Origin: a virus
DNA: 64,000 nucleotides
Strand: one strand, 5' to 3'
Virus record (IMG/VR): IMGVR_UViG_3300029365_000529
Span: 14,196-78,195 of that record
Positions 17,171 through 53,179 of this stretch are shown here, in pieces (the stretch's first letter is position 1; every line of letters starts with the position of its first letter). The notes below the pieces were generated by a model, which saw nothing but the letters and a program-made list of their open reading frames with translations, was not told the DNA's origin and did not search any database. Made by a program: the position numbers and the translations under genes.

Positions 17171-17247
17171 CAAAAATAGGCAAAAACATGGCTTTCTTTG
17201 CCGTGTTCCAACCAACCATCAGGCGCAAGGTTGGAGCACGGCAAAAC
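17171..17247. promoter_or_regulatory. divergent late promoter region with inverted copies of the conserved late motif
   Basis: TTTGCCGTGTTCCAACC at 17197-17213 and its inverted partner GGTTGGAGCACGGCAAAAC at 17229-17247 (one mismatch) form a hairpin-capable inverted repeat. Each copy faces one of the divergent operons; a -7 box TATTTTTG (minus-strand reading) lies at 17171-17178. Confidence 0.5.
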
Positions 17248-21018: not shown

Positions 21019-21297
21019 ATGGAGTATGTATCTACGAATTATAGCGAAGAAGAACTGGCATGGGTCTCCCCGGAGATAACCTTGCAGCGTGACATCTACT
21101 TGATGATTAAGCTAAAGCGCCCAGGGAAACTGGTAATCAGACAGGATAGGGGCGATGGCAAGAAGCCTCGGGTTCCCATTCGTGCCCACAAGAACACCTG
21201 CGAGTTCAAGCTTCGCCTTCGGGTGATTCCTGAAACCATAAAGATTCAGATATTCACTTCATCAGAACCAAAAGAAATCAAATATGCCTACATTTAG
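21019..21297 (+). CDS. hypothetical protein (92 aa)
   Basis: Small basic ORF; its end overlaps the tail fibre start. Confidence 0.4.
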   Translation: MEYVSTNYSEEELAWVSPEITLQRDIYLMIKLKRPGKLVIRQDRGDGKKPRVPIRAHKNTCEFKLRLRVIPETIKIQIFTSSEPKEIKYAYI

Positions 21298-28807: not shown

Positions 28808-29275
28808 ATGAAGAAATTTTTATTGATGCTGATAGCTGTATTCACTTTGTGCGCTTGCAGTAGTGATAGCTATGATGATGTAAAAAATGAAATCATCTAT
28901 GACGGTAATACTCATCAAATAAATAATGTGGAGATGGATAAAAGCCGTATTTGGTTCTATACCAGCGATGGCTATTGGTTCACTCTCGATAGCGAGAAAA
29001 TCACTGTAGGTAAGAAAATATATCTTATTGCCGATGAGCACTTAGATTCTTCTTTCTCCAAATTCCATGAGCCAGATAGCTACGCAGATATAGTTCATTC
29101 TTGGTGTAACAATGAAGACTATAATAACAAAAGAATAACTAGCGATTCTTATGTCTTGGTCAAGGGAAACAATGATGATAACAGATATTATATAGAGGTA
29201 TTCTTGGATGATGGCGTAAAGTATATTAGAGCCACATATTATGGTACGCCAAAATTAGGTTATATGGGGGATTAA
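28808..29275 (+). CDS. lipoprotein (155 aa)
   Basis: Signal peptide with lipobox FTLCACSSD. Confidence 0.6.
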   Translation: MKKFLLMLIAVFTLCACSSDSYDDVKNEIIYDGNTHQINNVEMDKSRIWFYTSDGYWFTLDSEKITVGKKIYLIADEHLDSSFSKFHEPDSYADIVHSWCNNEDYNNKRITSDSYVLVKGNNDDNRYYIEVFLDDGVKYIRATYYGTPKLGYMGD

Positions 29276-29278
29276 AAT

Positions 29279-29533
29279 ATGGCATATCCTAGAAATCCAA
29301 AACTTGAACAGATAATAATATTCTGTTTTTTAGTTATGTGTTTATTTTCTTTCTGTCCAGCAGGTGAAAACCGATACGTATATATTTGCACAGGTCCAAC
29401 TGCCTATGCTTACCACAAGACGAACAACTGTAAAGGACTGCGCCGATGCACTGGTGAGATAAAGAAGATAAGTATAGAACAAGCGAAGAAAGAAAATCGA
29501 AAGGCTTGTAAGTTATGTTTTAAAAAGAGGTAG
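29279..29533 (+). CDS. small membrane-anchored Cys-rich protein (84 aa)
   Basis: N-terminal hydrophobic helix, then CTGPTAYAYHKTNNCKGLRRCTGE...CKLCF. Confidence 0.45.
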   Translation: MAYPRNPKLEQIIIFCFLVMCLFSFCPAGENRYVYICTGPTAYAYHKTNNCKGLRRCTGEIKKISIEQAKKENRKACKLCFKKR

Positions 29534-29534
29534 T

Positions 29535-29807
29535 ATGAAATATCTAACATTATTGATTTGTATTATATTTATTTCATGTGGACCATCAAAACAAGAACTC
29601 CAAGATGAAATAGAATGTAAGAATGACACAATAGAAAATTTGAAAAGAATAATTAGTAATCAAGGGGATTACATAGAAGAACTTCAAGAAAAACTAGATG
29701 AAATTAAATCTCGTGCAAGCGATATTCAATCATCAATAGATGACGATTATATTGATGATGCTTATGATGCAGCATCTGATATAGAATCTGAAGCTGAGTA
29801 TGATTAA
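29535..29807 (+). CDS. lipoprotein with coiled-coil and acidic tail (90 aa)
   Basis: Lipobox IFISCGPS; C-terminal DDDYIDDAYDAASDIESEAEYD. Confidence 0.5.
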   Translation: MKYLTLLICIIFISCGPSKQELQDEIECKNDTIENLKRIISNQGDYIEELQEKLDEIKSRASDIQSSIDDDYIDDAYDAASDIESEAEYD

Positions 29808-29810
29808 AAA

Positions 29811-29850
29811 GAAAGGAGTGAGCCTTGCGCCCACTCCTTTATTTATTTAT
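29811..29850. terminator. bidirectional terminator shared by the lipoprotein operon and the giant gene
   Basis: Stem GGAGTGAGC/GCCCACTCC (one mismatch) with loop CTTGC, A-run upstream and TTTATTTATTTAT downstream. Confidence 0.6.
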
Positions 29851-41800: not shown

Positions 41801-44800
41801 CAGTAACCTTAATACGACTTTCAAGTTCTTTGTTTACTAAGTCGTCTGGTTCTTCTACTCTTGGTCGTTCTGGTTCTGTTCCTGCTTCTGCTGGTTCATT
41901 TCCTCCTGATGCTTCTTGTTGAGGTTCTTCATTGCCTGAAACATCATTGCCTCCTTCAATTTCTGAATGTCCTGTTCCATAATCTTGCCATTTTTTAAAG
42001 TTCAAATACTCATTAATTAACTCTTCCTTGGTAGGAGCTGCCTCAAACATATTGCCCTCGCCAGTATTTCTAGCCTTAGCGATGCGGTTGTATTCGTCAA
42101 GCAAATCTCTGAAATCAGAAACCTTGCCCTCCAAGGCTAAAGCCATCATCTGAGAGATAGAAGAGTAACGCTTAGCCGCATCCTCACCGAACATGTCTGG
42201 TGTTCTCAGCAGCGTATCAACCTTATTGCCACCCTGTCTTGCCTCATAGAGCAACTGTATAGCCTGATCAATCTCATCACGAAGAGAGAACTCACCCAGC
42301 TTCATGTTGTCCATTACCGAGCGGATAGCGTTGATAGCCTTATTCTTCACCGTAGAGTCGATGCCCAACATTCTGATAGTCTCTGGCTTGAAGATTGAAC
42401 CCAACAGAAGGTTCTTCACATACTCCCTGCCTTGTGCAGAAAGCCGTTCAGGACTATCCATCATCTGTGCCACCTCGTTCTGTCCGATGATGCCTTTATC
42501 TACTAACGTCTTCACCAAGTCATTTATTGCCTTGGAATTGTTAAAGAAAGCATCAAGAGAGCCATTTCCCTCAATCTCTGCAACAATCGCACCTACTTCG
42601 TCAGAAGTCAAGGTCTTAGCCTTGGCAACCGCCTGTTCGGTATTGCTCTGTGTCTTCTTCTCGTTTCTGTTGAATTTGGAGAAGGTAGCCGTATCGTATG
42701 GCAGTCTCTCATCCGTCACCAATACAAGACGTGGATGCTCGATTCCACTCTGCTCAATCTGCTCTCTGGTAAAGCCGAAGTTCTCGGCATTCTCCAAAAG
42801 GTCGTTGATGTATTCTGCGTCTGTGCCTTCCTTTGCAGCCTTCTGTCCTGCCATGGTTCTACCGTTACCATCATAAACGATACCCTCGTCAGATACCACT
42901 GGCACCTGCTCGATAGCCATACCGTTATACTTCCTAGCAATCTGGTCCGTATTCTGCTGAGCCGCCTTGTCGTGCTCATAGTCACGGTCATTCACGGTTC
43001 TGCCCTCAGCATCGGTAGGGAATCCCTCAGATTTCTTATAGCCATTGTTCACATCGTGAGAAGGAGTAAGACTTTCTGCCGGCACAATCTCATAGTGTCC
43101 CTTAATCTTTGTCTCTCCGTCAGGCAGCATTCTTGTACGCTTGTTACCCACCAGTCTTGGTGCATTCACAAACTTCTGTGCAGCCACGCTACCAGCTTCA
43201 TGTGCGCCCTCAGTCTGTTCTGTATTACCCACAGTCTCCGCAACCTTCTTGGCAGTCATAGCCTTCTTGATATTCTGAGCGTGGTCCAGCTGCTTCTTGG
43301 CAGCTTCAATAGTCTGATTCTTCAAAGTCTCCTGCTCCATGATGTCGTTAGGTTCGGCGGTATAGTCCACCTTCATCTTCTCGGCATCCTTCAAAGCCTT
43401 CTCTGCTTTCTGAATCTGTCCGTCCACTACCTTCTCGGCATTATCCCCGAAATCCTCAGTAAGAATCTCCGCACTCTGCTCAGGAGTCATTTTCTCATAG
43501 TCAGGCGTAGGTCTTCCCTTGCTGTCCGTAGCCATAGGAACATCTGAACCATCGGCAAACTTACGGGTAGGCTGAGGCTGCTCTTGTGGTACAAATTTCT
43601 CGGTTTTGGTATTATTTTCGCCCGATGCGGTATTATTTTCGCCCGATGCGGTATTATTTTCCTCATTTGTGGTATTATCTTGTGGTGCTTCCTGCTCCTT
43701 TGGCTGAGGCTTGGCAGCATCCTGCATAGCTTGCTCCTGTGCTGCCTGATTGTATGGCTCAGAGTTCTTCATCTGTAATCTCTGACGATATTCTGCAGCA
43801 AACTGGTCGATAGGCTGATTCTGAAACAGAGTAACCTCATCTGCCTTCACATAAACCATTTCCCTGGTATTAGGGTCGAAGCAGACAAGCATATCGCCGC
43901 TACCTTCCTTGGCTCTACCTGTAGTCTGGTCAAAGGCAACATCACCCGAACCAACAAGAAGTGTTCTTCCGTTGCTGTCTTGCACGTACAAAGCTTGCTC
44001 GCCATTCATCGGCTGGCCATTCAATGTTCCGTGATAGCTCCAATCAGAAATAAAGCTCTTCACATTTTCCTCTATGACATCAGCAGTAGCTTCCTGCATA
44101 CCCTGCACTCTAGCGTTCGCATTAATATATTGGGCAAGTGGGGTCAACTCTTCTTGGGTCAATCCATTCTGAATGAGTGCATCGTAAATCTGTGCCGGTG
44201 TCAAGCCCTGCTGGTGCAATTTCTCAAATGTTTGCTTGAACACATCGTTGCTATCCATTGCTTCATCAACCGCCTGTTCTGCATTCCGAAGGTTGCGCAA
44301 CTCATCAACTACCACGCCGCTATCCGGGTTGTCCGTTCCCAGACTATGCTCCTCGGCAACCGTCTTGCCTTGGCTGGCAGACTGGTCTGCGTGTGGTCTC
44401 CAGCTAGGAAAAAGCTCATCTTCGAGTGCTCTCTTCACATGATAGAAGATTCTGTTCTCCTCATCGGTACGCTTCATTGGGTCCTTGCGCATGATTTTGT
44501 CAATATCAATAACAATGCTTCCTTCTTTACCAAGAATTTCTTTGATAGAAGCCATGAAGTTATTAGTATAGCCTCTGCTTTCTGATCTGAGGTAGCCAAG
44601 CAAACCGTTTTTGTCCGCATACTTCTCCCAGTCAAGATAGAGCGCACTCTTCTGGTTGCGCAACTCATTAATCAGTCGGGCATTATTCGGGTCTGTAATA
44701 TCCTTATTCTCGTCATATCCGTTTTCTTTAAGAAATCTAAACGCTAGATTAGTGACAGTTCCATCATCATCTAAGAACTGCATATCCTTCATTCTTGCAT

Positions 44801-47150
44801 AGCCCATCAGCGACATCATATCGTCATTATCACGATAAAGCTTCTGCTTGTAAAGAATAGCTCTGCGCTCATCGGCATTCTTATAAGAGGTACGTGTAAG
44901 CAGTGTTCCGTTCTTGGTGTATTCCAGAATCTGCTTGTTTTTCACGTCGTTCACGCTTCGGTAGCTTTTGCCTCTTGTCGTGTTAAACAGTCCCATGGCC
45001 GCATTCACCTTCTCTTTGGTGCTCTGAGAAACGTCTGGGTCGTTCATAAAATCCGTGTAAGCAGTCTTATACTTCGGGTCTCTTGGGGCTGTCTTCGATG
45101 CACGGTCCATCTTTGTAAAGGCATCCATCAGATTCTTGCCCGATGCAGAAGAAATCAGCTCGTTCTTCTCATCAGGAGTCAGACGAATATCCACGGCGAT
45201 AGGGGAACCGTTGTCATTCTTGCCAATCACGAAATTACCACCGCTGTTATGGGTAAGATGATGCAGGATATTGCCCATCTTCACGAAGTTGCTAGGTTCG
45301 CCAGCCTTGAAAGCACCCACCATCACCACGTCTTCCAGCCAAGTGCCGAAGGAAATATCCTTGTCGCCAGTCACGTTGTCGGCAACCATCATGGTTCCAG
45401 CCTCAACACCGAGACCTGCGGCAGTAGCACCAAACTTCTGTGCGCCATGAAGCAATCGCTCTCCAGTGCTCTTTTCCATGCCGGTGATTCCGAACTTGGA
45501 AACCCAAGGAGACATCACCGCACCAGATACACCGAACATAGCACCAGTTACAGCACCGTGTTCTGCACCTTTCAGACCAGCCTCACCGATAGCCTGCAAA
45601 GAAGTATCATCGCCAGTAGAAGCCTGATTCAAAGCAGCACTCGCACCCGAATATCCTGCAAGATTCAGCGAACTTGTAGCCGTTCTAGTGCCCAATCCCG
45701 ACATGATCTTCTGTGCCGTTGTCATATTGGCAACCTTGAAAGCCATCTGCTGTGCTGTAAGTCTCTGTGCTGCCTTCATCACGCCAGCCTTCACCAGTCC
45801 GTTTGTCAGAACTCGGGTTCCTGCATTCACGGCAGCACTCGCACCTGCACCGATTACGGCAAGCGGACCAGAATCTGCAGCCATGTTTACGGCAGTAGAT
45901 GCGAATCTCGTACCGATGCCCGAGCGATAGGTTTCATCCTTGTGACCGGCCACCTTCTGAATCTCTGCATCACCGTCTGCGATAGCGATACCTTCCTGCA
46001 ATCTCTGTCTGGTATCTCTAGACATCACAGATGGAGCCACCACCATACCGATAATAGAGTTGCTGAGGTTCTTGGCAATGTAATCAAGCGCACCATGAGG
46101 CATGATTTCCTCCTGATTTCGCATCGTCAGAGCCTTCTGAGCATAGTTCATAATCTCTGGAGTAACGTATTTGTCCACGTATTCCTCCATACTCATGTTC
46201 AGCTTCTCTGCGCTCTCAGCAATATGGCGCTGCATACCCTTCTGCGAATAAATCTCATTGATTTTGCTGCTGAGATTGTTCATCAGAACGTTCTGACGGT
46301 TCACCTGTTCCTGCGTCTGAGCATCACGGAAAGCCTGTTCCTTTACCGACTGAGGCGCATAGATGCCGCCCATCTTGTCAAGGTTCTGCTGATACTGCTG
46401 ACGTGTTAATTCCTGCGCCTCATTTATGGAAGAATCAACCAGACTGAGAAGATCATTACCCAAAATACCTTCGGTCTGTCCGTCATTTCTTACGAACTTG
46501 TTGCCATCAACCTCATACTGGGCAAGATTCCTTGCATCGTCCTCTCTCTGCTGCTTACCTCTAGCCCTGCGAGCTTCAGGAGTAGAAAGCTGCTGCATCG
46601 TCTCGTTGAAGTTCTTGGCAGTAGGGGTTATTCTGCTTCTGCTGATAGGGGTTGCTCTCTGCTGTTCCTGACGTGCAGACTGCTCTTGTGCTCTTTGCAT
46701 GCGCGCGCGCATGTTGCTAGCCTGAGCCTGCTGCATCGGGTTCATCTGGTCGTTGCGCATGTGCATCAACTGCCAGTTCTTCATATAGTCTGTACCAGAA
46801 GCAGTAGCCGTACTAGGCTGCTGAGGTCTCCGAGGCTGCTGCCTCTGCTGCTTATACTGAGCTGCCACCTTCTGTGCCCTCTGCGAAGTAGTCATTGGCT
46901 TCTGCTGCGCTACCGGCTTCTGCTGAGGCTTCGGATTTACAGCATGGAGTCCAAGCCGCTGCGCAAACTCCTCATAGGAATTACTGGAAACAGCACCATC
47001 AGCATGAAGCGCATCATAGAGCTGCTTTCTGTTATGATAGCCCTGCTTGCCAGGCGCATACACGAACTTTCTGAAATGTTCTCTAGTTCCCGATACTGCG
47101 CCATCTGCTTTCAAGGCGTTATAAAGTTGGTCAAATTTATCTCCAGCCAT
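29847..47150 (-). CDS. giant polyvalent virion protein (5,767 aa): ParB-like + N6A methyltransferase + SNF2-family helicase + two HExxH zincin modules + hydrophobic segments
   Basis: Uninterrupted 17.3-kb ORF. Motifs confirmed by reverse-translating the + strand: DGNGR (ParB-like, about 42870), LEPSAGNG...VVTNPPFGSA (MTase motifs I and IV, NPPF at 40275-40286), GIGKGRQ (Walker A, about 39170), LILDESH (38715-38726), FFSATF (motif III), QMRGRIDRTGQ (motif VI, about 37570), IMLHEMIHEA (35062-35079), TIWHEVVGHKG (33584-33601). Confidence 0.85.
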   Translation of the reverse strand: MAGDKFDQLYNALKADGAVSGTREHFRKFVYAPGKQGYHNRKQLYDALHADGAVSSNSYEEFAQRLGLHAVNPKPQQKPVAQQKPMTTSQRAQKVAAQYKQQRQQPRRPQQPSTATASGTDYMKNWQLMHMRNDQMNPMQQAQASNMRARMQRAQEQSARQEQQRATPISRSRITPTAKNFNETMQQLSTPEARRARGKQQREDDARNLAQYEVDGNKFVRNDGQTEGILGNDLLSLVDSSINEAQELTRQQYQQNLDKMGGIYAPQSVKEQAFRDAQTQEQVNRQNVLMNNLSSKINEIYSQKGMQRHIAESAEKLNMSMEEYVDKYVTPEIMNYAQKALTMRNQEEIMPHGALDYIAKNLSNSIIGMVVAPSVMSRDTRQRLQEGIAIADGDAEIQKVAGHKDETYRSGIGTRFASTAVNMAADSGPLAVIGAGASAAVNAGTRVLTNGLVKAGVMKAAQRLTAQQMAFKVANMTTAQKIMSGLGTRTATSSLNLAGYSGASAALNQASTGDDTSLQAIGEAGLKGAEHGAVTGAMFGVSGAVMSPWVSKFGITGMEKSTGERLLHGAQKFGATAAGLGVEAGTMMVADNVTGDKDISFGTWLEDVVMVGAFKAGEPSNFVKMGNILHHLTHNSGGNFVIGKNDNGSPIAVDIRLTPDEKNELISSASGKNLMDAFTKMDRASKTAPRDPKYKTAYTDFMNDPDVSQSTKEKVNAAMGLFNTTRGKSYRSVNDVKNKQILEYTKNGTLLTRTSYKNADERRAILYKQKLYRDNDDMMSLMGYARMKDMQFLDDDGTVTNLAFRFLKENGYDENKDITDPNNARLINELRNQKSALYLDWEKYADKNGLLGYLRSESRGYTNNFMASIKEILGKEGSIVIDIDKIMRKDPMKRTDEENRIFYHVKRALEDELFPSWRPHADQSASQGKTVAEEHSLGTDNPDSGVVVDELRNLRNAEQAVDEAMDSNDVFKQTFEKLHQQGLTPAQIYDALIQNGLTQEELTPLAQYINANARVQGMQEATADVIEENVKSFISDWSYHGTLNGQPMNGEQALYVQDSNGRTLLVGSGDVAFDQTTGRAKEGSGDMLVCFDPNTREMVYVKADEVTLFQNQPIDQFAAEYRQRLQMKNSEPYNQAAQEQAMQDAAKPQPKEQEAPQDNTTNEENNTASGENNTASGENNTKTEKFVPQEQPQPTRKFADGSDVPMATDSKGRPTPDYEKMTPEQSAEILTEDFGDNAEKVVDGQIQKAEKALKDAEKMKVDYTAEPNDIMEQETLKNQTIEAAKKQLDHAQNIKKAMTAKKVAETVGNTEQTEGAHEAGSVAAQKFVNAPRLVGNKRTRMLPDGETKIKGHYEIVPAESLTPSHDVNNGYKKSEGFPTDAEGRTVNDRDYEHDKAAQQNTDQIARKYNGMAIEQVPVVSDEGIVYDGNGRTMAGQKAAKEGTDAEYINDLLENAENFGFTREQIEQSGIEHPRLVLVTDERLPYDTATFSKFNRNEKKTQSNTEQAVAKAKTLTSDEVGAIVAEIEGNGSLDAFFNNSKAINDLVKTLVDKGIIGQNEVAQMMDSPERLSAQGREYVKNLLLGSIFKPETIRMLGIDSTVKNKAINAIRSVMDNMKLGEFSLRDEIDQAIQLLYEARQGGNKVDTLLRTPDMFGEDAAKRYSSISQMMALALEGKVSDFRDLLDEYNRIAKARNTGEGNMFEAAPTKEELINEYLNFKKWQDYGTGHSEIEGGNDVSGNEEPQQEASGGNEPAEAGTEPERPRVEEPDDLVNKELESRIKVTDEETETPSENGPITRQKILIDGDKEVIKVDEPNDKGEYTGSYYEYDGKKFGDLNEVVEYVDGKVKEKPLPLLPKEEKPDPTFDPIAAAAKEFKKEHPLTEEEIMKADVDDLSKDMALDYLNGEVTDDLHRAIYESIFAKTRGQKTEPKVETPKTEPSADPMEGIKNAAEAFGKEKKTKAETEKKPQQKADDAAVAASNKKVNDLWDMLKNAGKDEISASFIGLNSRQLEVLPKLVSAMAENAYLRIKRGMHNLEDVVKEMRKEFAPAAKLFKKEDVDAIYEQMMNIRYRDGEQRMSLKDWADFYEKTSPKHQENLVGDSKTAEERKMAEKKFIDTVNIKLGFKHKFNGIVELRQIAERVGLKDIKDTDLQELAETAIVKRARGIASSESTNDAVKFERIKTLYENQPSLNQRDSERVMKQQYSTPAPYAFLADMYVKGNGKVIESTLEPSAGNGMLTIGLPMDKVHVNDIDAQRLANLRRQGFKNVTSQDGTQPFADKDVDVVVTNPPFGSATPKEYDGYKISSLEGQMAINALESMKDDGRAAIIVGGKTEYAKNGSLNPKDKAFLGYLYSHYNVEDVINVDGSLYAKQGTSYPTRIILINGRRLNENAFPPVKDKARAETVKDYDELYKRIEDDILRGERMDSSIGGETRSAQPELDKQGAAGTPKERVRAGERGGSKPDGERESDLFDSTSVSGTHDDLENQRGTEPRQDGGLPNGDSRADGTGTEPSPSKEPTTGTNEQRGNGSGGAGRNDAQPSTDEPSNAGSGSGPRGQLQRVDKSVRGLSTEKVTYTPKSGNPFTLKAVMPADQQEAVNKNLEKLGDADQFLVDELGYNDKDDLYSHLAAEQVDSVALALQQAKKGNAFIIGDMTGIGKGRQAASLIRYAKKQGQVPVYFTKTAGLLSDVYRDLVDIGSPDLRPFVFGSAKEAAITDSDGKVVFALPSKSEVKRVLDYIEKNGKLPDEYDYVLTTYSQVSNGVYEFDEDGNRKERKLAKGKSFGAAALSGQKRRDAIEKLMGNAYLILDESHTAGGNSGQGNYFQHIIQKAKNVTFFSATFAKRPDNMPIYALRTAMNEGGMKSSDLIDAVKRGGATLQEIMSQTLTQCGQMIRRERDMTGVTIDWKAIDDPERVQEQREQYDSIIGLFNDIINFQKKYVSSYVDERNDELAAIQSTMGIKKGTAALGIKNQPFASKAFNAVQQVLLSLKAKSAAERAIDYLKQGMKPVIALNNTNESQTGNLALGEEMDAPDLGTSLKKGLEGTLRYTQKDAKDNSESGYIKLSDLGDEAVDAYHELEKKIEQTSTGLSLSPIDVIKNELQKAGYKVGELTGRQTEFVYNDNGTVTKVKRADTDKKKLARDFNDGKIDALILNKSAATGISLHASSKYKDQKKRVMIVAQQQLDVNDEVQMRGRIDRTGQVARGAYEYVVSLIPAEQRLLMMFKAKLKSLDANTTSSQKSKFNEMEVADITNKYGDKVVREYMAEHLDLYARMADPFGWEKSNGDDLSRIDPQTLVASGGGVGEGEAGADASKLLGRMALLRVSEQEKMLQEIGELYANEIQRLNEMGENDLEITELPLKAKTLHKEVWKQGAEPGGDNAFADNTYIEKVNMAILKKPMKASEVKASQDGLTGGKTWDEYKTDKKAAVKEYFDQKIADETQKYEERAVKAATKAKEKYIKDGKKGQKDSGMSDEQIEKMAGYQYDNIYKQEKDKLNDVVKNLKAKAEMFERVLDTFDTNQTFVLPTDMNNPNELSGFGNSYGRLIDIKITDNYSPNASSVSFATLDGRRKITFPIAGKVGAGDNKADVISAIDNMTKQAAGMGDSHLRVLNQNFDNWDRLTSNESRKNGYIVTGNLMQALVDSKDQGLGGQLVKYTTDTGEVKTGILMPDRFDPKGLTTDAPINSVVDKFELSSWHGGIDEVTSSDGEVKVKRIDNNRGNFYELRVPKSKAKGGKYFMDENLLKLVNGNNFETRGNNMLAEFKPDQLKPVLDRLSKMGVKVQEERNTSEDERTHFREDRGLQYSKTDTKDVKNSRIIPEDVDKNVSSQIEKKFDSTIKDIEEHTEDRDKSLFADNLESALDEFSDLGRSVIEYYKNDYERKVEKLSGQHTGGHLGGKNDGKGNKGSYLLQYYKTILAVADRELAYRDARAKNLRETWGLQPGGTFTLGDVERIFKETNRDKEKAELFEKALNISKRLGVRIKVSPEDPNKRAGEADTRRNIDLYIDGITKTKAPDYAAPTIMLHEMIHEATMGAINLVKKGKAEGMLTPKQIEGVKTILEIYDRVKGDKERFKEEPYGLTDAYELTAQMADSRQRKAMDLSIWDKVVNAAHEFARKGDRSILQRLKDAWKKLFEVSEKDKMDKAINDIMDDFNETIDDISMNEIEQDGFSYKVTDKDELDRLNKEKTFRMYSGMQEVDGKLYSPMAAIIDGKRTDATEIGAWMGADERPDLVKNGKFQLVKTDKNPGAGEGPVPAAYNPYMHTSTSVMNDQFSGAYARGNIKVVEWEIPESEKTSGYHAEGAKNSVGLVPWTSGTVNSLLPKDRQRSVMLSRWRKAVRILPDEEVAEKIADQLRGTGLAIPWNVVTPSQLRELVKLGVPITTVEQGRQNPETKEKFLKQMAELEQEFPQAKFVNVKMTKDAYKEWGKDGGTKFRTDNGESNYPASSVESHIENVAQKTGGKVKMVSSVDEITNKAAKAAIEDGRKITGWYDEKTGEVHLYMPNIHDRYTAEKTIWHEVVGHKGMRELFGDERFDKFLREVWYDLDKPENAALKKLVDEERKFNPLNIYDAIEEGIARLAEDGKGEPGFWNGIKNKVSDFLHEIGYRIAPNTKDVKYLLWLSKNLQKNPNDPYWKMRVEAVKYRLDHERMPAVVAHDGMFYGNDAKVRSMDNLTKAEWNEATDGEIHFRTTPSAGTALDRYHRSLDEHGYMFTESYMDNMLSLKKLMNAIVPDKKIEDIASSENPYILQNTMQGAMSDAAQIFERNVMKPLDKAMAGVLDAFDGKKDDEKIRNFNLYMITKHGLERNRILYVRDALKYMRMNEKTKKLADTVEFDWNNEKATLDEKLERGDIDLKTYYERMDDFIRTYVDSDNKFDAGEHDYSGIHAIQEVAKSSDPYDDAEAIASVMDSEAKMESIKKGSVKDYWDKVKAATQYSIDTDYKNGLISRELYGHVSDMFNWYVPLRKYDEATAEDTYGYITEQGDPKSYIGSTIMRARGHKYLSETNVLAQIGAMGNRAIKNGGMNAIRQAFARFVRNNSNNNLVTETRVWYADDPITHTTVERYPDIPEDATADEINQIVADFNMEMKDLESKGLATKVYRRGRIGYKFQRAENKSQHIVDVKIAGRTHTFIINGNPRAAQALNGLLENSGAKGIMKPLSSISRMMAQLCTSYNPEFVMRNIMRDAEFASSNVTSKEGARYGALWTKYYAQLGLYKGASNISFKDLSGTTGLGLFAKYRNGTLDTSDKVQRYFKEFMENGGETGWVQIKNMQDWTKEYKKDVKSERSKIDKGGAALRDFFFGNLANINEVAENIARFATYCASRDSNRSIIRSVYDAKEVSTNFNRHGSGDAIKSFKNGEMTGGKAAARWAYGFTASYLRHCSMFFNAGIQSTNLLVKNLKNHPVGTSINMLAIPFALGALAALGNNVLIASEDEKDRKGVKDPYGELPDYVRRNNLCIYKGGGQFVTIPLAIELRAFYGLGDLAAGLTFSPNVSGQKNPALDAVGCMSQLVPVMDYLGNSSAGKEPLNETIKAISPSALSPFVEWELNTDWKGAPIERRGDWNENSPAWQRAYKGVPDGYLAVNKWVNAQTNDVAKGNEDMLGNSFLDMVTNPSMLNHYIGGIGGGAATFTERAIGVIKHGSDTETKDIPFLRSLLYTPSEQSSLQRTKSKWYNYKDEMEKTMANVDRLKSKNVPIDKRITNIGEYYHFQNSKEAAKVRVIELAEKQMKRWKKLRDKSSDTESINFANQNIDRIMMDAVDELDRLE
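43600..43680 (-). repeat. 21-bp tandem repeat (3-4 copies) inside the giant gene
   Basis: + strand GGTATTATTTTCGCCCGATGC twice, then two degenerate copies; encodes NNTASGE-NNTASGE-NNTKTE. Confidence 0.7.
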
Positions 47151-47167
47151 ATATTATATATTAATGT

Positions 47168-48577
47168 TTATAAACCAAGTTTCTTTGTATTCTTATATCC
47201 GTTCTTCGACTTGCCGGCAGATTTAGCTGCTCTCTTTCTGGCTTCTTCCCTCTGTCTTCGCAGCGCTCCTGCTCTCTGTGCAACAGAAGAACCGCTTTGT
47301 CTGTTGGTGGTTCTTGTAGTAGAGCCATCCCTGTTGAACACTTCCTTGCTGCTTGAAGTAGATGAATTGCCAGAAGTATTACCATTGTAGTAAGCTTCAT
47401 TTGCTTCATACATGGTCTTGTTGGATGCGTAATGTGGTTTTCCTTCTGCATCCCAAGTTACGTATTTGGCAGAAGAGCCTCCACCGCCGCCTGATCGTCC
47501 ACGTCCGCTTCCTTTATGGGTAGCATTATACTGTGAAATGCTCAATCTTCTGTTGGTCTGCTCGTCCTTCGCCTTATCACGCTGCTGCTTATATTCGAAG
47601 TCTCGCTGGTCCTTCTGCTGCTTATACTGTGCTGCTGCAGCATCCTTGCCCTGACGATAGTCGAACTTATCCCTGGCAAGCTGATTATTCTGGTTCCTCA
47701 TGCCAAGAAGCAGTTCCCTGTAGGCATTCTGTGCATTGGCAGCACGTTCCTTCAAGCTGAGATTAGCCTGCTTGTAAGCCGCATCTGCATCAAGTGCAGC
47801 TTCCTTCTGTCTCTCAGCCTTGCGGTTCTGATAGACCTGTTCCATCATGGCAGTAGGGTCATTGAACTGCTGCAAAGGAGCGCCCTTGGAAGTATTCACG
47901 ATATTTCCCATGTGACGGATGGCATCGGCAAAGGCAGCGATATTCTCACGGTTGGTAGTGATTCGGCGGTCATACTCTTCAGGAGTCTCACCCTCACGCA
48001 TTCCCGGTCTGCTCTTCGGCATAATCTTGCCGAGCCAACTGAAAAAGCCGCCATCCCTCTGCTTTGGGTCTGCCTCAAACTCAGGAACCTGCTGTTCCTG
48101 TGGCATCTGAAAGCCGCTCAGAGCAGTAGAAAGCGTATCATAGCGAGGTGTTCCGTCAGCATTCCAACCGGTAGAAGGCTGTGGCATTCCTTCAAAATTG
48201 CTCTGAGGCTGAGGGGTATTCTCTGCTGCATCGCCCATGTAAGGAGTCTGTACTGGTCCCAAGGCAGGGTTAGCATTACCGTTGCCCTGCGGAACGAACT
48301 CTTCCTGCTTAGGCATCTGGGTGAAGTCTGTAATAGGTGCTGCGCCAGTCTGAACAGGCTGAGCCTCAAACTTACCGGTAGCACCGCCCCCATTGCCGAA
48401 GAAGTTAACGCCAGCACCGCCATTTACCCCCGCGGACCCTCCGTTACCTCCATTCATCACCTGATCATAATCGGGATATTTCGCCCTCATCAGGTCATGT
48501 ACAGCCTCAGGATAGCCGCCGATAGTTACCGGCTTCTTCCTAGGCTGCTGCGTATTCTGATTATTGTTTACTACCAT
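47168..48577 (-). CDS. low-complexity Gln/Gly/Asn-rich protein with central coiled coil (469 aa), probable internal virion/ejection protein
   Basis: ORF immediately upstream of the giant gene in the same operon; GG-rich N- and C-termini. Confidence 0.55.
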   Translation of the reverse strand: MVVNNNQNTQQPRKKPVTIGGYPEAVHDLMRAKYPDYDQVMNGGNGGSAGVNGGAGVNFFGNGGGATGKFEAQPVQTGAAPITDFTQMPKQEEFVPQGNGNANPALGPVQTPYMGDAAENTPQPQSNFEGMPQPSTGWNADGTPRYDTLSTALSGFQMPQEQQVPEFEADPKQRDGGFFSWLGKIMPKSRPGMREGETPEEYDRRITTNRENIAAFADAIRHMGNIVNTSKGAPLQQFNDPTAMMEQVYQNRKAERQKEAALDADAAYKQANLSLKERAANAQNAYRELLLGMRNQNNQLARDKFDYRQGKDAAAAQYKQQKDQRDFEYKQQRDKAKDEQTNRRLSISQYNATHKGSGRGRSGGGGGSSAKYVTWDAEGKPHYASNKTMYEANEAYYNGNTSGNSSTSSSKEVFNRDGSTTRTTNRQSGSSVAQRAGALRRQREEARKRAAKSAGKSKNGYKNTKKLGL

Positions 48578-49629
48578 AAGTGTTGTATATTCTTAAATAA
48601 GTCTCTAACATCCTCACCATATAGCCTAACCGTAACCTTTAAGCTTGGAGAAACATCTTTCTGGTTTGTAACTTCTCCATGAGAATTATCATCTTTGAAA
48701 GGGGAAAGTTTCTTCTCCTCTTCCTCTATAAAATCATACAGCTGAGGGTTGAATCTGTAGCCATTCGCCCAACGGCGATATTCTTCGAATTCTTTTGAGG
48801 AGACTTTTCCTTCATAGACTATAACATTTGCCAGCTTCCGGATCATCTTCTCAGCAGCAATACCATATTCGCAATACTCCTTAGAACCTTTACGAACGAT
48901 TTCAACAAGCTTGGACTTCTCCTCCAACTCCTTCTTGGTAGCCGCCAGTTCATTACCTAAGTCGGCAATCACCTCGTCCTTCTCTGCAATCACCTTCTCT
49001 TTGTAAGCGAGAGCACTCTCGGCACTCTTCAAAGCCTGAGCATCAATCTCGTCAACAACCTTGTCTGCAAGCTTCTTCTTCAACTTCTCATTCTCCCCAA
49101 CATACTTAAGACCTAACTCGGCAAGATTCTTCTCACGAATCTTTGTAAGGCGAAGTTCCTCGTTTTTATCACATAACTCCTGTGATAAATCCAGATTCTC
49201 GCCGAACATCTTAATCTTTCCTCTTAGGTGTCTAGAACTTTCCTTTCTAAACTCCTCAATCTTCAAGTTCTTCTTATGGATAATCTTGTTGAGTCGGGAA
49301 ATCTTTTTAGTGAGATGCTTAATCTTCTTTCCCTGCTCATCCAACAAGGCATCGTTGAACTGGGAGGCTGCTTCTTCAAGGGCAGGAGAACCAGACGTAG
49401 GTGCATTGCTATGCTCTTCAAGCTGCTCCTTCAAACGAGCCTTGCGAGCGTTAAAGTCACACACTTCCATCATGATCATATAACCGGCAGAACAAACAAT
49501 CTGCATAGCTTCACAAATCTCAGGACTCTCTAATTCAATAAAGCATTCGCTAACATCGCAAGGCTTACCAGGACCTTCAAGCTTAAAACCTTCTTTCATC
49601 AACATATCCTTTGCTTCTTCTAATGTCAT
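48571..49629 (-). CDS. coiled-coil protein (352 aa)
   Basis: Long heptad-like Lys/Glu/Leu-rich segments; same operon. Confidence 0.55.
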   Translation of the reverse strand: MTLEEAKDMLMKEGFKLEGPGKPCDVSECFIELESPEICEAMQIVCSAGYMIMMEVCDFNARKARLKEQLEEHSNAPTSGSPALEEAASQFNDALLDEQGKKIKHLTKKISRLNKIIHKKNLKIEEFRKESSRHLRGKIKMFGENLDLSQELCDKNEELRLTKIREKNLAELGLKYVGENEKLKKKLADKVVDEIDAQALKSAESALAYKEKVIAEKDEVIADLGNELAATKKELEEKSKLVEIVRKGSKEYCEYGIAAEKMIRKLANVIVYEGKVSSKEFEEYRRWANGYRFNPQLYDFIEEEEKKLSPFKDDNSHGEVTNQKDVSPSLKVTVRLYGEDVRDLFKNIQHLW

Positions 49630-49632
49630 AAT

Positions 49633-49917
49633 CTATCCAATTAAAATAATGATTAATAAACCAGCAAATGCGCCTAACACATCTGCTACAATATCCTTGT
49701 TGTCAAACAAGCCGTATGTGTTATAGTCGTATGCCTCCTTCAATATGCCGGCAATAATTGCTATCATGCAAGCTGATACAGCCGAAGCCGTAATACCCAG
49801 ACCGAGCAGGTTCATATTCAAAAGAGCAACAACCATCGTGATCAGGCAGCAAGTCTCAAAGTGCAATACTTTGTCCTCGCCACCAATTCGCTTTATAAAT
49901 CTCTGAAATCTATTCAT
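49633..49917 (-). CDS. small integral membrane protein (94 aa)
   Basis: Three hydrophobic helices and a KEAYDYNTYGLFDNKDIVADVLGAF motif. Confidence 0.45.
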   Translation of the reverse strand: MNRFQRFIKRIGGEDKVLHFETCCLITMVVALLNMNLLGLGITASAVSACMIAIIAGILKEAYDYNTYGLFDNKDIVADVLGAFAGLLIIILIG

Positions 49918-49934
49918 ACTATTTTGTTTTAATA

Positions 49935-50159
49935 TTAATCTTTCTTGAACATTTCTTTTGAGAATTGTACTAATTCCTCGAATGTAAATGTAGTGTTATC
50001 AACTTCATCGTCATGAGCCATATTCCATGTTCCCTTCTTTAGTTTCGGGAGAGTCTTTATAAAAGGCTTTCTGTTTGTGTAAGCACCAGCTAAACCTTTT
50101 GGTCTATGATGCCTTTCGTATTCTTTTCTACCACACAGAATAATCTTTGTTCTATTCAT
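49935..50159 (-). CDS. hypothetical protein (74 aa)
   Basis: Basic small ORF. Confidence 0.4.
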   Translation of the reverse strand: MNRTKIILCGRKEYERHHRPKGLAGAYTNRKPFIKTLPKLKKGTWNMAHDDEVDNTTFTFEELVQFSKEMFKKD

Positions 50160-50381
50160 AATCTGTAATATTTAATATTGTTAACACTTCCCGAAAATTC
50201 AGGGGTGGGGAAAATCGGAAAACCGAAATCCAGAAAAAGGGGGTGGGGGGAGGCAGAATTTCTTTATTTGTATTATTCTACTATAATTTGCAACGGTGGT
50301 CGAAGGGGGTGGGGGTCTTGGGGTTGCCTGTTGTGCCTCGTCCACCTTGCCTGTCGCTCATCCACTCCACCTTTTAGCTGC

Positions 50382-51149
50382 CTACCCAAGTCTCGACAAG
50401 CCAACTGCCTTCTTCAAGCGGTATTGGTTCTTCTCCTCGGGAGACATCATGCTCTCAGCCAAGTGGTCGCTTGCAGCAGAACGAGCGGTCTCATTCATGG
50501 TGTGTGATACATTTGTGTTATCAATTGGCTTTTCATTTGAGCCTAAAGCGTTGGCTTTCACCGCTTTAGCACCATCGAGTTCTGACCCCAATTGGTTCAC
50601 ACCGAAATTGAACATCGCATTTGACGCATTTTGAGCCGCATCGCTAGTGGCTTGCGCCTTCTGCTGCTCGATTTGCTGACGTTCTCTAGACAACTGCTGA
50701 GTGTTTTGAAGGTGAGCGTCCTCCACATGCTGCTTGCGAGCCGTGTCCTGTGCCGCTACGTTGGCTATCGTGTCGCCCATAGCCTTATTAGCACTCTCCT
50801 TCGCCATTGCCACGCTTGCAGCAGTTCCACCGCCAACAGCAGCAGCGCCATCAGCCTTGCGGACATACTCGTCCTGTACTTCCTTCGCCCTTCTCATGAG
50901 GTTTTGACCCGCTTTCGTGTCAAGGTAGTCCGTGTTGTAGTTCTTGTCGTACCAAGCCTTCTCAGCGTTCGTTCTGTACGTGTTCTCCGCTTGTGCCCTT
51001 CTAGCTGCCTTCTTAGCCTTGTTAGCACCGAAGAGAGAGGAGCCAACGCCAAGCGCCAAGGATGCAGCACCTAAGACCCATTCTTTCTTATCCCCGAGAA
51101 CAGGGCAAGAGGTCAAATGCTTTGGGATTTTTGATAATATTTCCGTCAT
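50382..51149 (-). CDS. hypothetical protein with N-terminal transmembrane helix (255 aa from an internal start)
   Basis: Track ORF 50382-51311, trimmed to Met MTEILSKIPK because the conserved late-promoter motif and -7 box lie inside the longer N-terminal extension. Confidence 0.45.
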   Translation of the reverse strand: MTEILSKIPKHLTSCPVLGDKKEWVLGAASLALGVGSSLFGANKAKKAARRAQAENTYRTNAEKAWYDKNYNTDYLDTKAGQNLMRRAKEVQDEYVRKADGAAAVGGGTAASVAMAKESANKAMGDTIANVAAQDTARKQHVEDAHLQNTQQLSRERQQIEQQKAQATSDAAQNASNAMFNFGVNQLGSELDGAKAVKANALGSNEKPIDNTNVSHTMNETARSAASDHLAESMMSPEEKNQYRLKKAVGLSRLG

Positions 51150-51175: not shown

Positions 51176-51218
51176 GCAAATATATAATATTTGAAGGTTC
51201 GTTTTGCCGTGTTCCAAC
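51176..51218 (-). promoter_or_regulatory. late promoter: conserved motif plus -7 box TATATTTG upstream of the ejection-module operon
   Basis: TTTTGCCGTGTTCCAACC at 51201-51218; 17 nt downstream on the minus strand is TATATTTG (51176-51183), about 30 nt before the ATG at 51149. Confidence 0.5.
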
Positions 51219-51329
51219 CTCGGTCGAAATCGCCCCAAATCCCACCAATTTCTTTCTCGGGGCGCAACTCACCCCTTTTCCTTCTCCCTCTTCGCCCTCT
51301 AAAAGACCCATTTTGTAAACATACGTGAT

Positions 51330-51850
51330 TATTGTAAAGAAAAGACAAGTGGTTAATTATAAGCAAGTTAGTTTCAATCACTCCCGAGGAAGAATAAAAG
51401 CAAATTGTAAAGAAAGTTCTTATTTCATAAAAGAAGATTCTTTGCAAACAAAAAAGGGTTTTGCATTAATAGGTACGCACGCACGCAAGAAGTTCGTTAG
51501 CAAACTTTAACTAGCCGTATTTAGCCTTCTTGAATGTTTTTCACCCTAAATCAAGATAAAGTCGCTCATTTCTTGCGATTTTTGCGATTTTCGGGCAGTT
51601 GGTCGGGATTTCTCCCAAATTCGCAAGTTTTGAGCCGTTTAAGAGCCATTTGCAAGCAGATTAGAGCCGATTTTGTGGGTTTTTCGTAGATTTCATGGTT
51701 TTGTGCAAGATAATGCGCTCATCTAGGATTAAGGCTTTTAGAAGATGATTTAGGCGGTTTTGATTTTCCTAGTTGGAAAAATATTTTTTCCTAGTTAGGG
51801 AAATTGTTTTCTTTAGTAGTGTGGTTTCCTGTACTCTCTCTTCTCTTGTG
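51330..51850. other. 520-bp non-coding region with short iterated motifs (candidate ori, pac or regulatory hub)
   Basis: GCGATTTT x2 at 51575-51591; AGCCGTTT / AGCCATTT / AGCCGATTTT series; TTTTCCTAGTT x2 at 51764-51774 and 51786-51796. No ORF longer than 60 aa. Confidence 0.35.
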
Positions 51851-51887
51851 TGTTCTCCTTATGGGTGAGAGTGAAGAATCCTCGGTG

Positions 51888-51935
51888 GAGATAAGGGGGC
51901 AGCGCCCCCACGGGCGCAAGCGCCCTCCCCATGCC
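51888..51935. repeat. GC-rich twin-hairpin element, copy 1
   Basis: GAGATAAGGGGGCAGCGCCCCCACGGGCGCAAGCGCCCTCCCCATGCC; hairpins GGGGGC-AGC-GCCCCC and GGGCGC-AA-GCGCCC. Lies just after the end of the repressor operon. Confidence 0.6.
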
Positions 51936-51952
51936 CTGTGGGGCTGACGCCC

Positions 51953-52159
51953 TCACCACAAGCCTTGCAGCCACTTGCCGAAGGTGTATACCGAATACAG
52001 GTAGCACACCACGATGAGCAGTTGCAAGAGCCACTCAGCATACTTCACGGATGATTTCTTATGTTCCTCCACCTTCCCGAATACATTAAAGAGATAGGCT
52101 ATACAAACGAGTGAGACTGCACCGAAGGCGAGCCACATGATAATTTGGACTATAATCAT
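51953..52159 (-). CDS. small two-helix membrane protein (68 aa) co-transcribed with the repressor
   Basis: Overlaps the repressor stop in ATGA; two hydrophobic helices; possible superinfection-exclusion-type protein. Confidence 0.4.
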   Translation of the reverse strand: MIIVQIIMWLAFGAVSLVCIAYLFNVFGKVEEHKKSSVKYAEWLLQLLIVVCYLYSVYTFGKWLQGLW

Positions 52160-52455
52160 TTCGCTATAATCCTTAACTCATCAACTTGCTTGAAGAACTC
52201 CTCCAATGTATCGGCAGTATAGTGGATGCCCTTATAGCGGATAAAGCTAGCAAAACCTTCTTTGCTATCCTCCTCGAAGAGTTCAGACACCTTGCAGCCG
52301 ATTATCTCTGCCATTTGTTCAAGCCTATCAATACCAAACTTTTTGCGAGCTAACATTTGGCTAAGTGATATAGGCTCAATGCCCATACCTTTAGCCAAAT
52401 CTTTTTGCTGCATCCCATGTGCTTTTAAGCACTCTTTTATTCTCAATTGTACCAT
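52156..52455 (-). CDS. XRE-family helix-turn-helix transcriptional repressor (CI/Cro-like)
   Basis: LKAHGMQQKDLAKGMGIEPISLSQMLARKK is a typical XRE HTH; divergent from the early + operon. Confidence 0.65.
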   Translation of the reverse strand: MVQLRIKECLKAHGMQQKDLAKGMGIEPISLSQMLARKKFGIDRLEQMAEIIGCKVSELFEEDSKEGFASFIRYKGIHYTADTLEEFFKQVDELRIIAK

Positions 52456-52614: not shown

Positions 52615-52656
52615 TTTGGAGAGTATAGCATAAATACTTATCTTTGCACTCGAAAT
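52615..52656 (+). promoter_or_regulatory. early promoter PE1 (TTTG-N20-TATCTTTGCACTCGAAA)
   Basis: TTTG at 52615-52618, 20-nt spacer, TATCTTTG at 52639-52646. A near-identical copy is found at 63133-63183. Confidence 0.55.
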
Positions 52657-52939
52657 CAAGTTAGTTTGATTTTAGAGGAACGATGGCACGTTTAGAACTT
52701 CACGTTTAACTACCTCTATAAAAGTACAGATTAGTCGGGAAAGTCAGAGAGATAGAACTCTTCAAACATCAACGGAAAATGCGACCGAGTTAGTTGCCAC
52801 TCTAAAAAGCAACAAGACAAAGAAGTCTCAAACACTCATCACGCAAGATGTAAAAACGCTAGTCGTGTTAGACTAGAGAAACATCGAAACACGTCAACCC
52901 ACGGACGTTAAACGAAGGGAGTTAGGTCACATGTAACTT

Positions 52940-53179
52940 GTGAACGTTGGGCGCAAACGTACACCTGCACTTTGTATGTATAACATTTTAACAACAACGA
53001 CAATGGAAACAACAAAGATGTGTTTATTAGAATTGACTAAGGCTGATGCTATGGTATTAGTCAACGTAATTAGAAGAACTGCAAACGAGAATCCATTTCA
53101 TTGGAAGGAAAGCAGCGTTGAGAAGACAAGAGACCTGTACGATAACGTAATCGCTCAGTTGTACGACTATAAATATTAA
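52940..53179 (+). CDS. hypothetical early protein (start may be the internal Met at 53003)
   Basis: First ORF after the roughly 280-nt leader. Confidence 0.4.
   Translation: MNVGRKRTPALCMYNILTTTTMETTKMCLLELTKADAMVLVNVIRRTANENPFHWKESSVEKTRDLYDNVIAQLYDYKY

Follow-up and report, generated by a model that had tools for sequence, protein, structure and literature searches.

A probable ejection-protein operon of a Bacteroidales phage, with a previously undescribed family in the gp15 position and a polyvalent giant in the gp16 position

Introduction

The late ejection genes of phages T7 (gp14/gp15/gp16) and P22 (gp7/gp20/gp16) specify a small membrane protein, a mid-size helical protein and, in the last place, the largest of the three (PMC8954989). 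The N4-type phage DEV has a comparable set (gp73/gp72/gp71), in which a small protein forms the pore, the mid-size protein is poorly conserved and the third member is an ejected giant of more than 3000 amino acids (aa); the cysteine content is suppressed in all of them (PMC11445570). In Kuravirus SU10, the experimentally defined ejection proteins gp20-24 (PMC9509320) are encoded in a run of five genes, with the largest one last and a terminator behind it. This work deals with a cluster of six genes located on the minus strand at positions 29847-51149 of a stretch of viral DNA of 64,000 nucleotides (nt), which corresponds to positions 14,196-78,195 of record IMGVR_UViG_3300029365_000529 and is referred to as the window. 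We interpret this cluster, with a probability of about 0.7, as a late operon that provides a phage of Bacteroidales, temperate and probably short-tailed, with its ejection proteins, and that consists of a core trio plus passenger genes.

As a podovirus ejection operon, the cluster is of a known design and not a new system; its particular features are a previously undescribed protein family in the gp15 position and a polyvalent giant in the gp16 position. The differences from T7 are several: no similarity to T7 gp14 or gp15 themselves was detectable, the giant of the window is more than four times as long as T7 gp16 (1318 aa) and carries predicted anti-defence enzymes, no lytic transglycosylase domain was found in the cluster, and unrelated genes stand between the first and the second members of the trio. 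Concerning DEV, the N4-type giant is a virion RNA polymerase, whereas that of the window combines ParB, methyltransferase and helicase domains with an LPD38 C-terminus; moreover, the match to gp73 is weak and the window phage is temperate. SU10 shares with the window the type of head-to-tail adaptor, and its ejection proteins are cysteine-free, like the 469-aa protein of the window and nearly so the 255-aa protein and the giant, but there is no pairwise BLASTP similarity between gp20-24 and the cluster proteins, and gp20 is reported to have transglycosylase activity (PMC9509320), for which no counterpart was found in the cluster.

The giant shares its multi-enzyme architecture, including an LPD domain, with the polyvalent proteins, which are predicted to be packaged and injected as anti-defence cargo (Iyer, Burroughs, Anand, de Souza and Aravind 2017, PMC5512222). 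One protein of this kind, gp47 of phi24B (2811 aa; LPD5, LPD1, LPD38), was detected by mass spectrometry in the virions of a short-tailed phage and was proposed as an ejection protein in a 2026 preprint (bioRxiv 10.64898/2026.04.10.717836). The parts considered of these two papers mention neither the partner proteins nor a cysteine signature, nor a layout with a C-terminal anchor and swappable cargo. A search of the phage collection gave no direct match in sequence to phi24B. The trio of gp14-like protein, 469-aa family and giant is present in the cultured phage BKO1-TP3, and its last two members plus a gp14-like fragment in BS-TP4. In both of them, unlike in the window, the trio adjoins the portal gene and the other genes of the cluster (for 352-, 74- and 94-aa proteins) are missing. 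Their trio genes are annotated as hypothetical, save for that of the BKO1-TP3 giant, which bears the label 'DarB-like'.

A conserved core of three genes

The cluster contains, in the direction of transcription, genes for proteins of 255 aa (50382-51149), 74 aa (49935-50159), 94 aa (49633-49917), 352 aa (48571-49629) and 469 aa (47168-48577), followed by the gene for the giant of 5767 aa (29847-47150). A first-pass annotation had described five same-strand genes ahead of the giant gene, and all five were found on the minus strand where it had placed them. The gene junctions range from a 7-nt overlap to 17-nt gaps, the sole exception being a C-rich gap of 222 nt (50160-50381, minus strand) 3' of the 255-aa gene, which forms the upstream edge of a variable gene slot.

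Some 160 related viral contigs were compared, along with three Bacteroides phages in culture. A first set of 80 contigs consisted of close relatives, while more distant members of the 255-aa family served to retrieve a second set. The first-round homologue searches run with the 255-, 469- and 352-aa proteins listed close relatives only. The diversity of the 255-aa family comes from a representative search, and that of the 469- and 352-aa families from the contigs fetched with the members of the 255-aa family.

The order of genes is fixed in the 80 close relatives: 255-aa gene, variable slot, 352-aa gene, 469-aa gene and giant gene. In 23 diverse loci, a gp14-like gene (218-265 aa) is followed by 0-8 inserted genes, a cysteine-free gene of 330-490 aa and a giant open reading frame (ORF). 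Locus L098 represents the minimal form without insert, and in some clades the insert contains short relatives of the 352-aa protein (135-264 aa). A DNA search of the cluster against cultured phages gave no match. At the protein level, the order found in BKO1-TP3 was gp57, gp56, gp55 (5553 aa) and portal gene, with gp57 34% identical to the 255-aa protein; in BS-TP4, gp2 and gp3 adjoin the portal gene, and gp1 is a C-terminal, gp57-like fragment cut by the start of the record.

Judged from this synteny and from the cysteine content considered below, the conserved core is formed by the 255-aa gp14-like protein, the 469-aa protein and the giant, and not by five genes. The five-gene ejection module of the first-pass annotation is thus upheld in that the cluster contains ejection-type proteins, but not in its composition. 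The 74- and 94-aa genes are sporadic, as they occur in 16 and 10, respectively, of the 80 related loci. The 352-aa protein, taken earlier as a core candidate, is a variable insert of normal cysteine content, and its gene is absent in L098, BKO1-TP3 and BS-TP4, all of which keep the core.

A separate observation concerns loci L086-L092 (e.g. L086:11397-14001 and L088:11410-15841), where the gp14-like gene is separated from the 469-aa homologue by what seem to be essential late genes. By eye, and with labels taken from the translations only, they encode a terminase-like protein of about 720 aa, a rhomboid-like membrane protein, an amidase-like protein and a structural-looking protein of about 900 aa. 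In view of these late-looking genes, the insert would not be made only of accessory genes, and the ejection genes would have been modularly rearranged.

Cysteine content

The cysteine signature marks three proteins of the cluster and not six. The giant has 7 cysteines in 5767 residues (0.12%; binomial P ~6e-30 versus the rest of the phage), and the N-terminal part of its homologues, as far as the fetched loci extend, contains 0.068%. The 469-aa protein has none, and 80 homologues, with 37,544 residues in total, lack it altogether. In the 255-aa protein there is a single one (0.39%; 0.25% across 76 homologues), which is replaced by serine in most of the aligned homologues. In the remaining proteins of the cluster the values were 7 in 352 residues (2.0%; 1.25% across the family), 3 in 94 (3.2%; 2.9% across homologues) and 1 in 74 (1.4%; 1.6% across homologues). 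The other 46 proteins of the window together contain 157 cysteines in 10,085 residues, i.e. 1.56%.

The same contrast was observed in BKO1-TP3 and BS-TP4 with respect to their own portal, capsid and terminase proteins. As controls, no cysteine was counted by us in the 2956 aa of SU10 gp20-24, nor in the 3967 aa of a Vibrio phage operon that ends in a homologous giant, and the near-absence of cysteine is described for the three ejection proteins of DEV (PMC11445570). Near-zero cysteine over as many as 5767 residues is a simple marker, which separated here the putatively threaded proteins from the co-transcribed passengers and which could serve to annotate ejection proteins in uncultured phages.

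The gp14-like protein

Concerning the first gene of the cluster, a longer reading of 309 aa was considered and rejected. The promoter lies inside the extension, which shows no codon periodicity across 70 homologous sequences, and for these two reasons the 255-aa start is taken as correct. The protein is highly conserved among the 80 close loci (median identity 91%). It had been described earlier as anchored by a transmembrane (TM) segment; what is found is one moderately hydrophobic, Gly/Ala-rich segment at residues 23-43 (Kyte-Doolittle 1.51). An AlphaFold model, with a predicted local distance difference test score (pLDDT) of 78, is helical, with three long helices.

The relationship to gp14 emerges at the level of the family. 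The protein of the window itself matches the Pfam family T7_gp14 (PF24072) with 16.5 bits and E 0.0079. A full-library search produced 786 representatives of 150-290 aa, and T7_gp14 was matched by 42 of the 142 members scanned (E <= 0.01; best E 7.9e-8), with five out of ten sampled distant members covering nearly the whole profile at 17-26 bits. When the family profile was compared with the PDB sequences, the best match was DEV gp73 (E 0.022), over a region that spans the hydrophobic helix and the basic stretch after it; a shallow profile of 10 sequences gave only chance matches in the same comparison. DEV gp73 is an N4 gp52-like, pore-forming ejection protein (PMC11445570).

The size of the protein (255 aa; 150-290 aa in the family) is to be compared with the ~180-260 aa expected of gp14-like proteins, and the gene order is also that of the gp14 type: first in the operon, then a mid-size protein and then a very large one, if 0-8 inserts are allowed. 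Taken together, the similarities are consistent with a peripheral membership of T7_gp14, reached by transitivity, and make the 255-aa protein a candidate for the outer-membrane pore of an ejection channel.

The 469-aa family

The second core protein had been described as rich in Q, G and N, and this is so: it is A/G/Q/N-rich, with an isoelectric point (pI) of 9.5. It is moderately conserved, with a median identity of 76% among the 80 close loci. All 23 diverse loci have a homologue of 330-490 aa immediately ahead of the giant ORF. The family has a conserved core motif, ADAxRHxGNIYNTxKGAPxQQFNxP, and a hidden Markov model built from 16 diverse members recovered BKO1-TP3 gp56 (E 2.7e-6) and BS-TP4 gp2 (E 7.7e-5; Z = 1e6 in both cases), while no decoy was matched.

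Other comparisons gave negative results. The 469-aa protein had no family match in Pfam or PHROGs, a tblastn search against cultured phages did not find it, and hhalign of the family profile against T7 gp15 yielded nothing. In the comparison of the profile with the PDB sequences, the only match was Vipp1 (E 0.43), which is not useful. The AlphaFold model is of low confidence (pLDDT 45.6), with the N-terminal 170 aa disordered and a 114-residue helix at residues 241-354. The first-pass annotation had contemplated a comparison of the 352- and 469-aa proteins with T7, N4 and crAss ejection proteins; by sequence, no similarity is detectable to T7 gp15 or gp16, nor to N4-type or crAss-type internal proteins of solved structure.

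It should be taken into account that gp15-type proteins are usually matched by size and synteny and not by sequence (PMC8954989). The 469-aa protein resembles them in being of mid-size, largely helical (according to the low-confidence model), adjacent to a giant and cysteine-suppressed; similarity at the level of sequence or profile was not found with Pfam, PHROGs, hhalign or PDB. By the searches indicated, the family is a previously undescribed one, and together with its ADAxRHxGNIYNT motif it offers a handle for finding such operons.

Transcription signals

The cluster is under a late-type, phage-specific promoter common to the operons of structural genes. An element with the sequence GTTGGAACACGGCAAAAC, at 51201-51218 (minus strand), precedes the cluster, and three other copies were found ahead of the portal operon (17195-17212, minus strand), of the capsid/adaptor/fibre operon (17230-17247, plus strand) and of an operon of small genes (5885-5902, minus strand). 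These four copies, with up to 3 mismatches, compare with 0.03 expected in the window. All of them are exactly 16 nt upstream of an octamer of the TAnnTTTG type, which in one copy reads CATTTTTG. TAnnTTTG is an established promoter consensus of Bacteroides, the Bacteroidota -7 box. In the cluster, the octamer TATATTTG (51177-51184, minus strand), which matches the consensus 28 nt upstream of the ATG at 51149, is presumably such a box. The core of the motif occurs at the equivalent position in 45 of 82 loci (the 80 related contigs and two segments of BS-TP4), and the motif scan of the window did not reveal any further copy inside the operon. The late-promoter motif assigned earlier to the operon is therefore real, and it is shared with the portal and capsid operons.

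The operon is closed by an intrinsic terminator at 29812-29840 (minus strand), a hairpin after the giant gene with a 12-bp stem and a T-run (free energy -19.7 kcal/mol, z = -6.55), in agreement with the terminator that had been marked at 29811-29850.

Two further observations can be mentioned here. At 17195-17247, in the gap of about 100 nt between the portal (minus strand) and capsid (plus strand) operons, two copies of the promoter element face each other as an inverted repeat, and one regulator bound there could drive both operons. The 222-nt gap at 50160-50381 contains long C-tracts, CCCCCACCCCC and CCTCCCCCCACCCCCTTTTT, with a G-rich stretch upstream of them; no significant RNA fold was obtained for it (z = -1.25), and it could act as an attenuator or as a hotspot of recombination. 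Neither the window nor the upstream leader gave any match in Rfam and tRNA scans.

Kind of phage and host

PHROGs profiles identified a terminase (10663-12780), a portal protein (15122-17155) and a tail fibre of 1021 aa (21284-24349), and Pfam SU10_adaptor matched an SU10-type head-to-tail adaptor at 20355-21011 on the plus strand (31 bits versus a gathering score of 27, E 4.2e-7). The earlier statement that no tape-measure or tail-tube gene is recognised holds also for sheath genes: none of the three gave a PHROGs or Pfam match among the ORFs scanned, which were those at 7981-28553 and those of the cluster. A short tail is probable, as it fits both the SU10-type adaptor and the absence of recognisable tube, sheath and tape-measure genes.

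Among cultured phages, the closest relatives are BS-TP4, BKO1-TP3 and BF1-TP2, temperate phages of Bacteroides with portal identities of 31-35%. The phage is probably a prophage of Segatella copri, since one homologue bears the name of this species and some homologues are found on contigs of up to 196 kb. An affiliation with Quimbyviridae was dropped. This was judged by description: in the parts considered of the corresponding paper, TerL is nearest to myovirus subfamilies and giant or polyvalent proteins are not mentioned.

The insertion slot

The 74-, 94- and 352-aa genes appear, from their distribution among related loci, to occupy an insertion hotspot inside the operon. In the 80 related loci, several other small genes can be found in the slot of the 74- and 94-aa genes. 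The descriptions given in the first-pass annotation for the first two products proved accurate. The 74-aa protein is basic (pI 9.7) and had no family match in PHROGs, Pfam or PADLOC. The 94-aa protein is polytopic, with a grand average of hydropathy of +0.93 and hydrophobic stretches at residues 17-62 and 73-94, and it matches phrog_26616 (E 8e-8) and, weakly, VanZ. Both seem to be accessory proteins.

As to the 352-aa protein, which is rich in E, K and L, the proposal of a coiled coil is correct in that it is helical with coiled-coil segments, but it is not one long coiled coil, since the heptad signal is significant only at about residues 204-250. The gene is present in the 80 close loci, where its products are 27-81% identical and 146-533 aa long, and the family is a mosaic: cassettes have been inserted or deleted, the N-terminal core exists in alternative forms and the C-termini are swapped; other clades have shorter relatives (135-264 aa). 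No informative match was obtained in Pfam, PHROGs, PADLOC or PDB, nor any by tblastn against cultured phages, nor with the family profile against the PDB sequences. When 35 diverse homologues were searched with Pfam for terminal domains of known type, only coiled-coil noise came out.

Some side observations concern this family. It shows apparent internal duplications of a helical module, with ALLDEQxKKI recurring as ALVDEQxEKIKKLE in inserted cassettes. It forms more than 3,400 clusters at 90% identity, versus 1,475 and 2,640 for its neighbours, a diversity consistent with diversifying selection. The 352-aa protein is a clade-level component of the insert and is probably not ejected; it may assist in assembly, act in counter-defence or be a needle-like fibre.

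The last possibility deserves consideration, as it would make four of the six genes virion parts. In P22, the gp26 needle is encoded beside the ejection genes. In a similar manner, the 352-aa protein could be a tail needle, plug or fibre, i.e. a trimeric coiled coil with exchangeable tips. The location of its gene in a late operon agrees with this, and so do a conserved extreme N-terminus, a helical part of variable length (274-533 aa) and swapped C-terminal domains, as in fibres that make contact with the host; its normal cysteine content would fit an external part that is not threaded. However, no needle or fibre family and no solved structure was matched, the heptad signal is only locally significant, L098, BKO1-TP3 and BS-TP4 have the rest of the operon without this gene, and the window already contains the gene of the 1021-aa tail fibre. 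A needle, plug or fibre role is considered unlikely.

The giant polyvalent protein

The giant contains the Pfam domains ddrB-ParB, methyltransferase, AAA_34/ResIII plus Helicase_C_4 (a Strawberry-notch-type helicase) and LPD38, and two HExxH motifs were read by eye in its translation. It can be said to be a polyvalent protein, as it combines several unrelated enzymatic domains with an LPD domain and is encoded in a late operon.

Conservation is concentrated at the C-terminal end. Residues 4479-5767 (29847-33716, minus strand) are 28% identical to BKO1-TP3 gp55 and BS-TP4 gp3 (E ~1e-117 to 1e-120), and the last ~870 residues are 24% identical to a 3130-aa protein of Vibrio phage 1.205.O (E 4e-39). 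Conservation that reaches Vibrio phages is seen in no other part of the giant; the methyltransferase-helicase block is shared with BS-TP4 only. The conserved region includes the sole strong predicted TM helix of the protein (residues 5404-5432; 30855-30941, minus strand; Kyte-Doolittle 1.82), just before the LPD38 domain (PF18857, E 1e-23; residues ~5443-5652; 30195-30824, minus strand). In DEV, the giant binds the periplasmic tunnel protein through its C-terminal domain (PMC11445570). By analogy with this, we infer that the C-terminal module of the window giant, about 1290 aa long, is a putative anchor to the ejection channel and that the remainder of the protein is exchangeable cargo.

An observation outside Bacteroidota can be placed beside this one. 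In Vibrio phage 1.205.O (MG592575.1; locus L166), genes 16-20 encode proteins of 201, 117, 77, 442 and 3130 aa, all cysteine-free. This five-gene run ends in the giant whose C-terminus is homologous to that of the window; it is found in about 100 Vibrio phage records, which suggests that the same ejection platform exists outside Bacteroidota.

The domains of the giant also bring to mind the Dar system of P1, a head-internal anti-restriction system in which DarA, Hdf, DdrA and Ulx act as helpers of capsid targeting or packaging. The giant could be a fused DarB/DdrB-like effector, and the upstream proteins could be helpers of capsid targeting or packaging. Its ddrB-ParB domain and its DarB-like block of methyltransferase plus helicase go in this direction, its BKO1-TP3 homologue was named 'DarB-like antirestriction' by the depositors, and the polyvalent proteins are predicted to be anti-defence cargo (PMC5512222). 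Against this, no match to DarA, Hdf or DdrA-type families was found in PHROGs, Pfam or PADLOC for any of the five upstream proteins, the first of which belongs to a gp14-like family and has a helix predicted to insert into membranes. Besides, the virion module is SU10-like and not P1-like, and what other phages conserve of the giant is its LPD38 C-terminus and not the Dar-like enzymes. A Dar-type system in place of an ejection operon seems quite improbable to us, although both interpretations can overlap, with Dar-like cargo and partners that form the channel.

Proposed mechanism of ejection

The trio of the window is laid out like T7 gp14/gp15/gp16 and N4-type gp52/gp51/gp50. In the proposed mechanism, its three proteins would be stored in the head and would pass in an unfolded state, as threads, through the portal and the tail, which would explain the near-total avoidance of cysteine. 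After ejection, the Gly/Ala-rich hydrophobic helix of the 255-aa protein would insert into the outer membrane and give rise to a pore, and the 469-aa protein would form or extend a conduit across the periplasm. The conserved C-terminal ~900-1290 aa of the giant, with the TM helix and LPD38, would act as an anchor to the channel and to the inner membrane. Its N-terminal and middle parts, with the ParB-type nuclease, the DNA methyltransferase, the Strawberry-notch-type helicase and HExxH, would be exchangeable cargo that enters the cytoplasm with the DNA and blunts host defence. The 74-, 94- and 352-aa products would be co-transcribed passengers or helpers and not threaded components.

A very different view, that of a lysis or membrane-remodelling cassette (holin, spanin or PspA-like) merely located upstream of the giant gene, can hardly be correct: it could invoke the hydrophobic N-terminal helix of the 255-aa protein, the non-significant PspA/Vipp1 helical hairpins that are the top neighbours of its model and the polytopic nature of the 94-aa protein, but no endolysin or holin family was found in the cluster with PHROGs or Pfam, the 94-aa gene is sporadic, the 255-aa family matches T7_gp14 and is cysteine-depleted, and its gene is on the same strand upstream of a 469-aa homologue and a giant in the 23 diverse loci and in BKO1-TP3.

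Returning to the interpretation as an ejection operon, several points weigh against it. The T7_gp14 score of the 255-aa protein of the window is below the gathering score of 27 of PF24072, and hhalign of the family profile against T7 gp14 itself gave nothing. Foldseek comparison of the 255-aa model with PDB and BFVD provided no significant match (E > 0.03), although the 50 best matches in BFVD include six proteins of ~170-230 aa named 'internal virion' or 'DNA transfer', all six with E > 0.1. For the 255-aa protein, the prediction gives only one weak hydrophobic helix, as compared to the 4-5 helices predicted in most T7 gp14 homologues (PMC8954989). A tunnel role of the 469-aa protein would be deduced just from its position, size, helicity and cysteine content, and cysteine depletion could in principle reflect a constraint other than threading. 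Concerning the short tail, the scan for tail genes was made within the window, while ~11 kb of the ~75-kb genome lies outside it, and BS-TP4, BKO1-TP3 and BF1-TP2 are not among the 15 phages named, out of 16 imaged, in the part considered of PMC12694917.

If the operon does supply ejection proteins, a protein of ~640 kDa would be delivered through a short tail into Bacteroidales cells. The proposal connects the channel-forming ejection proteins of short-tailed phages with the predicted injected polyvalent proteins, which have so far been treated separately. The lineage is very common in human-gut metagenomes, with 1,475, 2,640 and 3,478 protein clusters at 90% identity for three families of the operon (the 352-aa family and its neighbours); some of these clusters hold more than 1,000 member sequences. 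More tentatively, and as something possible more than expected, the giant C-terminus, the 469-aa family and the gp14-like protein might make up a widespread, undescribed ejection platform of short-tailed phages of Bacteroidales and Vibrio, with swappable cargo of up to ~4500 aa; the hotspot with the 352-aa gene might then be a fast-evolving layer of counter-defence or host range, either co-delivered or co-expressed.

Flanking regions

Between the late promoter and a group of genes that resembles an immunity region, there are about 700 nt of non-coding DNA (51220-51950), whose conservation, seen in about 76 of the 80 related contigs, equals that of the neighbouring coding sequence. This block shows neither codon periodicity nor a match in Rfam. 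At its start, very GC-rich hairpins read by eye (~51885-51945) are probably the terminator of the upstream operon; the block itself might be a regulatory leader or a packaging site, or might encode a non-coding RNA.

On the minus strand, a helix-turn-helix (HTH) regulator of the XRE type (52156-52455) is followed by an overlapping gene for a 68-aa membrane protein with two helices (51953-52159). At the DNA level, the HTH gene is shared by about 18 contigs, the 68-aa gene by about 34 and their flanks by about 74-76, an allelic pattern that resembles that of an immunity region. A second non-coding block, at 52650-53000, is conserved in 74 loci and lies between the HTH gene and the early genes of the plus strand; it could contain a small RNA or operator sites, and a terminator-like hairpin is found inside it (52859-52876, minus strand).

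At the other end of the operon, a low-GC cassette (0.39) of three genes on the plus strand (28808-29807) is convergent on the giant gene, with which it has a terminator region in common. It contains an ORF of 155 aa, an ORF of 84 aa with 8 cysteines (9.5%) and a gene for a protein of 90 aa in which a coiled coil comes after a signal of the lipoprotein type (MKYLTLLICIIFISC), and it looks like a moron, i.e. an accessory cassette carried by the prophage.

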